This document shows positions 34,764 through 51,731 of a stretch of 64,000 bases of DNA, one piece after another. Within the stretch, counting starts at the first letter, position 1; each line of letters starts with the position of its first letter. Source of the DNA: a phage. The position numbers were made by a program, and so were the translations under genes. The notes below the pieces were generated by a model. That model ran no database searches, was not told where the DNA came from, and saw nothing but the letters and a program-made list of their open reading frames with translations. The stretch lies in sequence record PZ026127.1. One strand, given 5' to 3'.

Positions 34764-35399
34764 ATGTCTAAAATTACTTATATCATCAAAGCTTCTGAAG
34801 ACGTCCTGAATGAAAAAACTGCTTCGATCTTAGTACATATCATCAAGCATAACTTCATCACTTCAGGCGAAGTCCGTGAAGCCCTGAGTGAGCAATTTAG
34901 TGCAGCAGTGGTTAACTCTAACATCGGTGTATTGATTAAGAAAGGATTCATCGAAAAATCTGGTGACGGTTTAGTGGCTACAGGTGAAGCAATGGACCTG
35001 GTTCAAAAAGCTGCCGACCTGTTCGCTTCTGAAAATGCTCCAGAGATGTTGGAAAAACGTAAAACGCGTAGTTCACGTGGTGTTACTCCTGAAATGGTAA
35101 CACTGGCTGATGAAGTTAAAGCTTTATTAGAAGACCGTATCGAGATTCGTGAAATTGCTGAAAACCGTAGCAACCTTGAAGTTCGATTCGCTAAACGTAC
35201 CAATGGTATTCGTCAAATTGAAGTCCGTCGTGATGGAATGATGCGTATCTTCGGTTATAATATGACTGATAAAGAAAAACAAGTGTTTACTTCCTTGAAT
35301 CTTGATGTTAAGATTAAGACTGGTGGTAAGAATACTTATATCGACTTCCAAAACGTATCATCTGAAGTTATCAAAACCGTAACCAACGCAATTATCTGA
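34764..35399 (+). CDS. motA: MotA middle-transcription activator
   Basis: 211 aa; N-terminus MSKITYIIKAS and VVNSNIGVLIKKG closely match T4 MotA. Confidence 0.9.
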   Translation: MSKITYIIKASEDVLNEKTASILVHIIKHNFITSGEVREALSEQFSAAVVNSNIGVLIKKGFIEKSGDGLVATGEAMDLVQKAADLFASENAPEMLEKRKTRSSRGVTPEMVTLADEVKALLEDRIEIREIAENRSNLEVRFAKRTNGIRQIEVRRDGMMRIFGYNMTDKEKQVFTSLNLDVKIKTGGKNTYIDFQNVSSEVIKTVTNAII

Positions 35400-37434: not shown

Positions 37435-37710
37435 ATGACTAAAATTGAAATCGTTTCCGAAATTGCCACTATTGTTTCCATTTTGATTAAAACGGATTGT
37501 GAAGACATCATGCAACGTCGTGATGAGTTTATTGCCTTTTTGAATGAGTTAGGTATTCGTAATGAACATGGAAAGGAACTTAATGGTTTGTCTTATAACA
37601 AATTATTTAAGTCTTTAACTGAAGATGAGCGTGAAACTCTTATTGAGCAATTTAATGAAGGGTATGAAGATATACACCGTTATTTAATGATGTATACCTC
37701 CAATTTCTAA
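37435..37710 (+). CDS. asiA: AsiA anti-sigma70 factor
   Basis: 91 aa; IVSILIK ... FIAFLNE ... FNEG ... YRYL pattern matches T4 AsiA. Confidence 0.9.
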   Translation: MTKIEIVSEIATIVSILIKTDCEDIMQRRDEFIAFLNELGIRNEHGKELNGLSYNKLFKSLTEDERETLIEQFNEGYEDIHRYLMMYTSNF

Positions 37711-49708: not shown

Positions 49709-49991
49709 TTTTGATGGAGCGGTTAATACCGCTTCCGAACCTGTCCATGTGCTCGTAAACAAACAACAGAATGGCCTTGATATTGAGGCCTTTGTTGAAG
49801 CTGAAGGTTGTAGTTACCTCGAAGCGGCTACCGCATGGTTGGAAGAGAACAGCATCCCTGAAGGTAACTTTGCTCGTTATTTGCCTGCAGGAATTATTGA
49901 TAAAATTATGAACGAAGCCATTGATGATAACTTGCTTCGACCTTCAATGGCTCGAACGCAAAAAACTAATACTCTGGATTTCTTGTTATGA
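49689..49991 (+). CDS. 33: late transcription co-activator gp33
   Basis: 100 aa acidic protein between dsbA and 59. Confidence 0.7.
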   Translation: MTQSLNDFDGAVNTASEPVHVLVNKQQNGLDIEAFVEAEGCSYLEAATAWLEENSIPEGNFARYLPAGIIDKIMNEAIDDNLLRPSMARTQKTNTLDFLL

Positions 49992-50641
49992 TTAAGATTC
50001 GCATGCCACCAAACAATAACCGTATGGTGAATGGTAAGAGCGTATATTCACTATACTTAATGCTCAAACATCACTTCAATGCCAAATACGACGTTATAAA
50101 ATATAACTGGGTCATGCGAATCTCTGATACGGCTTATCAAAAACGTCGTGACAAATATTTCTTTGAGAAATTGAGTGATAAATACACTTTGAAAGAGCTT
50201 GCTCTTATTTTCATGAGTAACTTGGTGGCTAACCAAGACGCATGGATTGGCGACATCAGTGATGCCGACGCCTTAGTCTTTTACCGAGAATATATCGGTA
50301 GACTTAAAAGAATAAAACAAGTTTTTGAGGATGATATCAAAAACATCTATTATTTCAGTAAGAAAGTGGAAGTTAAAGCGCTTTCTGAAATTTTTGATTA
50401 TAATAAAAAAGTTAACTCGAGCTATATTTTTAAGCTCCTTCAATCGAATGTTATTTCATTCGAAACGTTTATTTTGCTTGATTCATTTATGGATATAATT
50501 GATAAACATGATGAACAGACCAACGATTTAGTGTGGTCTAAGTATTCGACTAAATTAAATGCTTATAAGAAAATTCTTATAATCGATAATTTAGAAGCTC
50601 GTAAATTGTTCATTGAAACTATCAAATCTTGTAAGTTTTAA
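49988..50641 (+). CDS. 59: gp59 helicase loader
   Basis: 217 aa; near-identical to T4 gp59 across most of its length. Confidence 0.9.
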   Translation: MIKIRMPPNNNRMVNGKSVYSLYLMLKHHFNAKYDVIKYNWVMRISDTAYQKRRDKYFFEKLSDKYTLKELALIFMSNLVANQDAWIGDISDADALVFYREYIGRLKRIKQVFEDDIKNIYYFSKKVEVKALSEIFDYNKKVNSSYIFKLLQSNVISFETFILLDSFMDIIDKHDEQTNDLVWSKYSTKLNAYKKILIIDNLEARKLFIETIKSCKF

Positions 50642-50730
50642 TGCTTCAAACCAACTGTGTTAATATACTAACTCAATCTGTTAAAAACTGTTAATAAAAT
50701 ATAACTGCTAAATCTGCTAAGGTAAATAAT
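50642..50730 (+). promoter_or_regulatory. gene 32 mRNA leader / candidate autogenous translational operator
   Basis: AU-rich leader with iterated CTG(T/C)TAA units immediately upstream of gene 32 start. Confidence 0.45.
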
Positions 50731-51636
50731 ATGTTTAAACGTAAAGACCCTTCCCAACTGGCTGCTCAACTGTCTGCAATGAAAGGTGGTTCTTCTTTCT
50801 CTTCCGATGATAAAGCTGAATGGAAATTGAAAGATGACAATGGCGTTGGTACTGCGGTAATTCGTTTCCTACCTTCGAAAAACGAAGAAAATCCATCTCC
50901 ATTCATTAAGCTCGTTAACCACGGCTTTAAGAAAAATGGTCAATGGTACATTGAAAACTGTACGTCTACACACGGTGATTTCGATTCATGTCCTGTATGT
51001 AAATACATGAACCAGAATGATACCTTTAATACTAATAATGCCGAATACAAACTGATGAAACGTAAAACTTCCTTCTGGGCTAACATCCTTGTTATTAAGG
51101 ATAGTGCAGTGCCTGCTAACGAAGGTAAAGTGTTTAAATTCCGTTTCGGTCAGAAAATTATGGATAAAATCAACCAGATGGTTGAAGTTGATACCGATAT
51201 TGGTGAAGTGCCGGTTGACGTAACATGTCCGTTTGATGGTGCGAACTTCGTACTGAAATCTAAGAAAGTTGGCGACTTCAAGAACTATGACGATTCCAAA
51301 TTCATGGGTCAGTCTGAAATTCCTAACATCAATGATGAAGCTTACCAAGCTAAATTGATGGAAGAAATGCACGACCTTTCTAAACTGCTCGATTTCAAAT
51401 CATTCGAAACTAACGAAGCCAAGTTTAAGAAAGTTGTTGGTACAGCTGCTCTTGGTGGTGCTGCCGCTAAAGCTTCTGCAGCCGCTGATAAGATTGGTGA
51501 TGACCTGGACGCATTCAGTGCAGACCTTGATGCATATGATTCTAAACCATCTACACCGACTCGTTCCACTACTCCTGAGCCGTCAGTAAGTCCTTCTGAT
51601 GACGATGGTCTGGACGACCTGTTAGCTGGTCTATAA
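50731..51636 (+). CDS. 32: gp32 single-stranded DNA-binding protein
   Basis: 301 aa; Zn-binding [14 protein letters not shown] and acidic C-terminal tail. Confidence 0.95.
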
Positions 51637-51652
51637 GTTATTGATTTATAAT

Positions 51653-51678
51653 GGGAAGACTTCGGTCTTCCCTTTTTG
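51653..51678 (+). terminator. intrinsic terminator (8-bp stem, UUCG loop, U tract)
   Basis: gggaagacttcggtcttccc ttttt after gene 32. Confidence 0.85.
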
Positions 51679-51688
51679 GCATTTAATG

Positions 51689-51731
51689 GTTTACAACGCC
51701 TTTAAACATGATACTATAGACCTATCAACTA
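51689..51731 (+). repeat. early-promoter cassette copy 1 (identical 43-nt promoter-plus-box unit)
   Basis: gtttacaacgcctttaaacatgatactatagacctatcaacta, identical to copy at 52401. Confidence 0.7.

Follow-up and report, generated by a model that had tools for sequence, protein, structure and literature searches.

The window, a 64,000-nt stretch of phage DNA, was analysed around a gap of 89 nt that the open reading frame coordinates placed at exactly 50642-50730, between the stop codon of gene 59 (TAA, 50639-50641) and gene 32; the features of the locus are collected in Table 1. The downstream gene had been predicted from the sequence to be gene 32, and this was confirmed by a match to PF08804 and by 64% identity of its product to T4 gp32. 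The N-terminal cooperativity segment MFKRK was kept, and the zinc ligands H64, C77, C87 and C90 were invariant in a comparison across 8 lineages. The locus was 100% identical over 1.76 kb to that of Salmonella phage vB_SalD_ABTNLS3 and 97-99% identical to those of WG01, QL01, IME08, JS98 and JS10 (all Dhakavirus, Tevenvirinae), and the region is the gene 59–gene 32 intergenic region of a JS98/WG01-type Dhakavirus. Relative to its best-match record, OR756449, the window was mosaic, and not collinear before about 45.6 kb. The A+T content was 74% in the gap versus 60% in the whole window, and reached 77% in the final 60 nt of the gap. A scan of 50400-50900 with Rfam 15 returned chance-level matches alone (E ≥ 2, far below the gathering scores).

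Table 1. Features of the gene 59–gene 32 junction and of the gene 32 transcription unit, in window coordinates
Feature	Position	Strand	Remarks
Gene 59, helicase loader gp59	49988-50641	+	Open reading frame; Pfam T4_Gp59_N and T4_Gp59_C (PF08993, PF08994)
MotA box TGCTTCA (-30 element)	50642-50648	+	A/T-rich TTTTAA directly 5′
Promoter spacer, 12 nt	50649-50660	+	Most variable stretch of the Dhakavirus alignment
Degenerate unit CTGTGTTAA	50655-50663	+	In promoter spacer and -10 element
-10 element TAATAT	50661-50666	+	12-nt spacing fits the MotA-promoter pattern
Predicted 5′ untranslated leader, ~57 nt; putative pseudoknot-less gp32 operator	50674-50730	+	77% A+U, unstructured
Unit 1, CTGTTAA (extended, AAUCUGUUAA)	50678-50684	+	Invariant in 11 Dhakaviruses
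Unit 2, CTGTTAA (extended, AAACUGUUAAUA)	50688-50694	+	Matches the single-stranded 3′ flank of the T4-type pseudoknot
Unit 3, CTGCTAA	50705-50711	+	Invariant in 11 Dhakaviruses; aligns with intergenic AACTGTAAA of L006 and Q7622
Unit 4, CTGCTAA	50714-50720	+	Invariant in 11 Dhakaviruses; last bases overlap Shine-Dalgarno UAAGGU
Shine-Dalgarno UAAGGU	50718-50723	+	8 nt 5′ of AUG; without GGAG
Gene 32, gp32	50731-51636	+	Pfam PF08804, E = 2.7e-52
Intrinsic terminator-like hairpin GGGAAGAC-TTCG-GTCTTCCC and T run	51653-51680	+	Closes the gene 32 transcription unit

Promoter, leader and pseudoknot search

A MotA-type middle promoter sequence, TAATGCTTCA followed after 12 nt by TAATAT, lay across 50639-50666. 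Promoters of this type were taken to consist of (a/t)(a/t)(a/t)TGCTT(t/c)A near -30, located 11-13 nt 5′ of a TAnnnT -10 element, without a -35 element. Matches to TGCTTYA-N11-13-TANNNT numbered 8 in the window against 1.4 expected (approximately sixfold enrichment), one of them at 50642-50666, and MotA and AsiA are encoded in the window (PF09114 and PF09158 at 34764-35399; PF09010 at 37435-37710). Across 11 aligned Dhakaviruses, both promoter boxes (-30 and -10) were conserved and the spacer was variable, the MotA box showing a single T-to-C change, in IME08, and the block 50657-50680 being invariant. In phage NC-G, a homing-endonuclease open reading frame was inserted exactly 5′ of TGCTTCA, with the promoter-leader module intact. 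A sigma-70 scan returned no plus-strand -35/-10 promoter at the gap, and no late promoter TATAAATA was found near gene 32. The spacer was observed to hold the first part of the degenerate unit CTGTGTTAA, which resembles the T4 ACCAACTGTTAAT box with a TG insertion.

From consensus spacing, which places the start about 7 nt 3′ of the -10 element, transcription would start at about 50673-50675. Because the first ~30 nt (50642-50673) match a MotA-dependent middle promoter, they would not belong to the leader RNA of a monocistronic transcript, and the original prediction, which took the whole 89-nt region as leader, was narrowed to the ~57 nt from 50674. All four exact heptamer units lie inside this predicted leader, as do four of the six YUAA units of the gap. 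Folding of 104 nt gave a minimum free energy of -7.1 kcal/mol (z = +0.46), and the -60 to +15 region, with an ensemble energy of -5.5 kcal/mol, ranked fifth for lack of structure among the 104 translation start regions of the window. These values, together with 77% A+U, bear out the earlier description of the leader as A/U-rich and essentially unstructured. Structure prediction had been proposed as a check for an unstructured tract preceded by a pseudoknot; the tract was recovered (z = +0.46, rank 5/104), and the pseudoknot was not, either with a covariance model or in a geometric scan.

The pseudoknot search was based on relatives with a T4-type H-pseudoknot. In an alignment of 7 leaders, both stems paired in 100% of cells and compensatory changes were present in 7 of the 11 pseudoknot pairs, and slid controls dropped to 27-49%. 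A covariance model (R1) built from this alignment recovered the held-out relatives L034 (T2-like) at 40 bits, L030 at 25.6 bits and Dhakavirus MX01 at 46 bits. R1, whose sensitivity is limited, as it missed the diverged L020 pseudoknot, gave no match between genes 59 and 32 in either the window or JS98; in five other window-type Dhakaviruses it matched no more than the flank there. With filters off, the best local match in the window scored 9.7 bits and consisted of the 3′ flank AACUGUUAAUA (50686-50696), with the whole stem deleted. In the geometric scan, T4, VR5, L013, L015, L020, L026 and L034 scored 26-30 at the homologous position and the window 18, its candidate being an A/U-rich combination of 3-bp and 5-bp stems inside gene 59. 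Because shuffles reach the scores of genuine T4 pseudoknots, the geometric score alone is not significant; it was used for geometry and position only, and the test of absence relied on covariation and the covariance model. A T4/T2/RB69-type pseudoknot is absent from the window leader, so the "same arrangement" as in T4 that had been claimed for this region does not hold.

Heptamer units and a box shared with other T4-like phages

The repeated CTGTTAA and CTGCTAA units reported for the gap were all located, as two exact copies of each and one degenerate copy. In the 11-phage alignment unit 2 was replaced by CTGTCAA in KIT01 and MN04 and by CTGTGTA in ESCO10, and the degenerate fifth copy, CTGTGTTAA, was not conserved in JS98-type phages. 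CTGYTAA occurred 35 times in 64 kb counted on both strands (128 kb), so that four copies within 43 nt of the gene 32 leader are far above the genome-wide rate. Local composition accounts for part of this signal: in dinucleotide-preserving shuffles of the 89 nt, a five-copy repetition, defined as five non-overlapping copies with ≤1 mismatch of a four-letter heptamer, arose in 0.4% of cases, and in 4.9% with three-letter seeds. Against local dinucleotide composition the repetition was only moderately significant (p 0.004-0.05).

Among the 104 translation start regions in the window, that of gene 32 had the highest repeated-hexamer coverage (33/60 nt) and was alone in having more than one unit within 70 nt upstream. 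Several other roles for the units were considered and rejected. A general translation signal was ruled out, as one copy within 70 nt upstream was present in just two other genes of the 104. Phasing with the ~7-nt site size of gp32 was ruled out by unit spacings of 10, 17 and 9 nt and by 1-2 nt indels between phages, and long-range pairing with TTARCAG in gene 32 by the lack of any such site in that gene. A CUG-initiated mini-ORF at 50678-50704 was without a Shine-Dalgarno sequence.

The T4 operator reads ...UCAUAGC-ACCAACUGUUAAUUAAAUUAAAUUAAAAAGG (the leader is also given as …UGCCAGCUAUGAGGUAAAGUGUCAUAGC-ACCAACUGUUAAUUAAAUUAAAUUAAAAAGGAAAUAAAAAUG) and contains one CUGUUAA (CCAACUGUUAA) directly 3′ of its pseudoknot. 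The gp32 footprint on this operator extends from G(+3) to U(-70) (PMC535899), and the T4 CUGUUAA falls inside it. The box CACCAACUGUUAA was found 3′ of the pseudoknot in leaders whose gp32 proteins are just ~60-70% identical. A single-stranded box, (CC)AACUGUUAA, defined from the present comparison and not from the literature, is present once in T4, T2 and many other relatives, immediately 3′ of their pseudoknot, and in four copies in the window. By this comparison, CUGYUAA is an iteration of the box present once in T4, and not a Dhakavirus substitute for the T4 repeats. In the searchable literature, no mention was found of a CUGUUAA box linked with gp32, of JS98 linked with gene 32 or a pseudoknot, or of the JS98-group leader.

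In an unbiased count over 25 non-redundant gene 32 leaders, AACTGT was the most enriched hexamer (17/25 versus 0.85 expected) and ACTGTT the second most enriched word (13/25 versus 0.37 expected), and the Shine-Dalgarno word AAGGTA was less frequent than AACTGT (12/25 versus 0.93 expected); because these leaders share ancestry, P-values for the enrichment overstate their independence. The motif was found in non-coding intergenic leaders and also within the gene 59 3′ end, where it stands in codon phase 1 or 2 (aCT GTT AAa and aaC TGT AAa, encoding …TVKNCK…) and, in more distant phages, in phase 0 (CTG TTA, encoding LL, and CTG TAA, encoding L-stop). Its occurrence both in non-coding leaders and, within gene 59, in every codon phase argues for selection on nucleotides and not on the gp59 peptide. 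ACUGU was missing from some pseudoknot-less leaders (L046, L039-L044, L036).

Repetition was also surveyed irrespective of motif in 50 non-redundant T4-like loci, distant environmental ones included. Median repeated-hexamer coverage was 14 nt in gene 32 leaders versus 0 nt in neighbouring-gene leaders (Mann-Whitney P = 1e-8), and 24% of the former versus 7% of the latter exceeded their own dinucleotide shuffles. The excess persisted against intergenic, A/T-matched controls (P = 4e-6). The repeated unit varied by lineage, being UUAAA in T4, CUGYUAA in the window, AAAGUAAAU in L046, AAUCC in L066 and L089, and four copies of CAAAAUACAU in L071.

Likely origin of the leader and comparison with known operators

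Kanagawavirus Q7622, S16-like and L006-like phages all have gene 59 abutting gene 32, and by blastn and alignment window positions 50674-50745 corresponded to their gene 59 3′ end together with the short gap that follows it. The junction in Kanagawavirus, Gelderlandvirus (S16) and L006-type phages, ACTGTTAAAAACTGT(T)AAT...AACTG(C)TAAAT...TAAGGTAA...ATG, is alignable with this interval and differs from it in that the first two units are gp59 codons (…TVKNCKF/Y*) and the gap is 11-27 nt; in the window, units 1 and 2 are non-coding and are preceded by a middle promoter and, before it, by a distinct gene 59 3′ end. Unit 3 has a counterpart in the intergenic AACTGTAAA of Kanagawavirus and L006-type phages, and unit 4, which has none in the Kanagawavirus/L006 alignment, seems to have arisen by local tandem duplication of unit 3. 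The gene 59 3′ end of the window (…ACTATCAAATCTTGTAAG…, IETIKSCKF*) is homologous to the ends in these relatives but has lost both CTGT motifs, which are retained in the non-coding leader copy. An imperfect direct repeat of 23 nt with 36-nt spacing spans the leader and points to leader growth by duplication.

Two leader types were distinguished within Dhakavirus. The type without a pseudoknot and with four heptamers, represented by the window, JS98, WG01 and IME08, was present in at least 35 phage records, and an alternative arrangement in at least 11 (VR5, MX01, Bp7, AnYang and others). In this arrangement a SegG homologue is accompanied by a middle promoter, a pseudoknot of the T4 type and just one CUGUUAA. 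The SegG homologue of these sister Dhakaviruses, a homing endonuclease, was 58% identical to T4 SegG, the ribosome-binding context …AAUAAGGUAAAUAAUAUG was common to both leader types, and VR5 gp32 was about 95% identical to that of the window. T4 SegG targets gene 32, and co-infections of T4 with T2 pass it on at high frequency (PMC2988022), which makes lateral replacement of the leader together with the seg gene plausible.

The T4 gene 32 operator consists of a pseudoknot and an unstructured tract (PMC3014915, PMC535899), and cooperative binding of gp32 to its leader with self-repression has been shown only for T4 and RB69 (PMC535899). The window leader resembles the T4/T2/RB69 operators in its position immediately 5′ of gene 32, reaching the Shine-Dalgarno sequence and AUG, in the shared AACUGUUAA(U) box, and in the cooperativity and zinc-binding features kept in gp32; like the T4 operator it has an A/U-rich unstructured tract, with four YUAA-containing units versus four UUAA(A) units in T4. 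It differs from the T4/T2/RB69 operators in being without the H-type pseudoknot and in having the box four times versus once. The unstructured tract is also longer: it spans ~57 nt in the window, whereas between the 3′ end of stem 2 and the ATG T4 has 39 nt and VR5 (L005) 48 nt. The promoter abuts the leader, whereas the T4-type promoter lies upstream of the pseudoknot or inside segG (PMC2988022). Since the pseudoknot, one defining feature of the T4 operator, is missing, the region was classed as a variant.

Gene 32 leaders without a pseudoknot have been noted for RB49 and other T4 relatives (PMC535899, PMC3014915). RB49-type leaders, like that of the window, have no pseudoknot and keep UUAA/UUAAA-type units 5′ of gene 32; unlike theirs, the window unit is the longer CUGYUAA, homologous to the box that flanks the T4 pseudoknot, and leaders with and without a pseudoknot coexist within Dhakavirus. 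The region would function like the T4 gene 32 operator, from which it descends, and belongs with the pseudoknot-less leaders noted for RB49. As a functional parallel, the gene V protein of filamentous phages is also a cooperative single-stranded DNA-binding protein, and represses gene II mRNA by coating an unstructured leader. It differs in belonging to an unrelated protein family and in targeting another gene and not its own, and we know of no iterated heptamers in the gene V/gene II system.

A candidate gp32 operator and other explanations

The reading favoured here, with a probability of about 0.55, is that the middle promoter yields a gene 32 message with a ~57-nt unstructured leader that serves as a pseudoknot-less gp32 operator, in which iterated AACUGYUAA boxes replace the pseudoknot-plus-one-box of T4. 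From the MotA/AsiA-dependent promoter, monocistronic gene 32 transcription would begin at about 50674, and free gp32 exceeding the available single-stranded DNA would cooperatively coat the unstructured leader, roughly eight monomers (~7 nt per monomer) extending from the 5′ end to the AUG, so that the Shine-Dalgarno sequence and AUG would be occluded. The heptamers would be multiplied copies of the box (CC)AACUGUUAA in a lineage without the pseudoknot. Autoregulation, suggested earlier for this region, remains a reasonable inference: gp32 would bind the leader and thereby repress translation of its own message, and the units, rather than mere lack of structure, would confer the preference of gp32 for this RNA. 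Several observations count against the operator reading: the spacing of the units is not phased with the ~7-nt site, unit 2 is variable, the repetition stands out just moderately from local dinucleotide composition, the leaders behind the hexamer enrichment share ancestry, and some pseudoknot-less leaders are free of the motif.

How gp32, a sequence-independent single-stranded DNA-binding protein, selects the mRNA that encodes it is a classic problem still without a complete solution; the accepted explanation is based on the T4, T2 and RB69 pseudoknot. Dhakavirus provides a natural paired comparison, with ~95% identical gp32 proteins and either a pseudoknot and one heptamer or no pseudoknot and four; the paired leader types and the conserved box make the requirement for a pseudoknot directly testable. 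If the box AACUGUUAA is the recognition core, the textbook operator model would be revised; if it is not, the region would be an ordinary diverged leader of a well-known autoregulated gene. A broader proposal, offered tentatively and with the odds against it, is that gp32, or a gene-32-specific partner, recognises or nucleates on ACUGU(U)AA in a sequence-specific manner and that this motif forms the operator core in most T4-like phages, the pseudoknot being an accessory of some lineages and multiplication of the heptamer an alternative route to the same specificity; more broadly still, gene 32 operators would be lineage-specific iterated units co-evolving with gp32.

An equally doubtful but possible explanation is that the heptamers have no sequence-specific role and are by-products of duplication or slippage together with the remains of a former gene 59 3′ end, in a leader that is an operator or a plain efficient ribosome-binding region and is under selection for length, A/U richness and lack of structure only. 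It is supported by the alignment of units 1-3, in Kanagawavirus, L006 and S16-like phages, with gene 59 3′ codons (TVKNCK) and the short gap behind them. The apparent tandem duplication of unit 3 as unit 4, the imperfect direct repeat (23 nt, 36-nt spacing), the irregular unit spacing with indels and the variation of unit 2 agree with it, as do the modest shuffle result (p 0.004-0.05 only) and the entirely different repeated units of other lineages. It accounts less well for the retention of ACUGU(U)AA in non-coding leaders across genera with unalignable flanks and in three gene 59 codon phases, for the loss of both motifs from the coding copy in the window while the non-coding copy retains them, and for the invariance of units 1, 3 and 4 while the adjacent spacer drifts. 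The units might instead serve gene 32 mRNA stability, processing of a polycistronic transcript or translational enhancement of a very highly expressed gene, and not repression, which was judged unlikely. Gene 32 mRNAs are the most stable T4 messages and undergo RNase E processing, with a conserved site upstream of the operator (PMC3014915). The window lineage is without the pseudoknot region that adjoins the T4 -71 cleavage site, so that another element may have taken over, and the motif is gene-32 specific in the window. The RNase E consensus takes the forms RAUUW and RN|WUU, however, and CUGYUAA would not appear to fit either. The motif also lies within the region of T4 footprinted by gp32 (PMC535899), and a generic translational signal would not be restricted to one gene of 104.

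Least probable is that the units bind another trans-acting factor, such as the general translational repressor RegA, or act in DNA as MotA-like TGCTAA half-boxes. RegA operators are A/U-rich sites that overlap the AUG, and AAAACUGUUAAUAAA resembles the consensus selected for T4 RegA by SELEX, AAAAUUGUUAUGUAA. UAA triplets were also recovered in RB69 RegA selections (cited in PMC3014915). At the DNA level, the TGCTAA within CTGCTAA differs from the MotA core TGCTT(T/C)A at one or two positions, but its copies are without a usable -10 element upstream of the gene; with one located 12 nt downstream, transcription would begin within the region of the start codon. RegA is not known to target gene 32 in T4. 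The conservation of the motif in coding gene 59 ends and its strand specificity fit an RNA element better.

Relationship to OR756449 and the direct repeat of the gene 32 leader

The window and its best database match, OR756449, were not collinear over positions 1-45600 and were in register only over ~45.6-64 kb of the window. Repeated shifts in the offset between the two (+324 … +426 … -84) point to numerous indels or to mosaic segments.

The leader upstream of gene 32, which encodes the ssDNA-binding protein gp32, contains a 23-nt imperfect direct repeat whose copies are 74% identical at 36-nt spacing, one covering the -10 region and the first CTGYTAA heptamer and the other the third and fourth heptamers. 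This repeat suggests that the leader grew by segmental duplication.

Positions of the features described, in the window unless another locus is named
Feature	Position
Gene 33-like ORF	49689-49991
Gene 59, possible start ATG	49988
Gene 59, start annotated in OR756449	50003
Inverted repeat in gene 59	50563-50582
Direct repeat, copy 1	50662-50684
Direct repeat, copy 2	50698-50720
Terminator-like hairpin	51653-51680
Sigma-70-like promoter	51690-51717
ORF following the promoter	51747
Tandem units, L071	~1430-1500
Leaders of L007-L009	~1440-1500
Endonuclease ORF and the retained promoter and leader, phage NC-G (L103)	293-922 and 901-996

Leaders and insertions at other T4-like loci

Gene 32 leaders with conspicuous iterated units were found in distant T4-like environmental contigs, for example four tandem copies of CAAAATACAT in L071, AAGACCC x 3 in L058, AAAGTAAAT units in L046 and AAUCC units in both L066 and L089. 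The leaders of loci L007-L009, like that of the window, lack a pseudoknot; they contain a middle-promoter-like CGCTTCA-N12-TATAAT and a single CUGUUAA (CUGCUAA in L009) between AAUCAAA-type repeats. In phage NC-G, gene 59 (helicase loader) and gene 32 are separated by an inserted homing-endonuclease ORF whose end falls exactly at the MotA box, with the promoter and four-unit leader kept, an arrangement that differs from the SegG-plus-pseudoknot arrangement of the sister Dhakaviruses VR5 and MX01.

Sequences flanking the leader

The possible start codon of gene 59 overlaps the stop of the preceding gene 33-like ORF and lies 15 nt upstream of the start annotated in OR756449. In the 3′ part of gene 59, TTATAAGAA and TTCTTATAA, 2 nt apart, are the arms of a perfect inverted repeat of 9 bp. 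Similar sequence is present in the T4-like loci L006 and L010, and the repeat may reflect only conserved codons (AYKKIL). Downstream, the gene 32 stop codon is followed after 17 nt by a strong intrinsic-terminator-like hairpin, GGGAAGAC-TTCG-GTCTTCCC with a T run. A sigma-70-like promoter (TTTACA and TACTAT separated by 16 nt, with a TG extension) lies 3′ of the hairpin and precedes an ORF.
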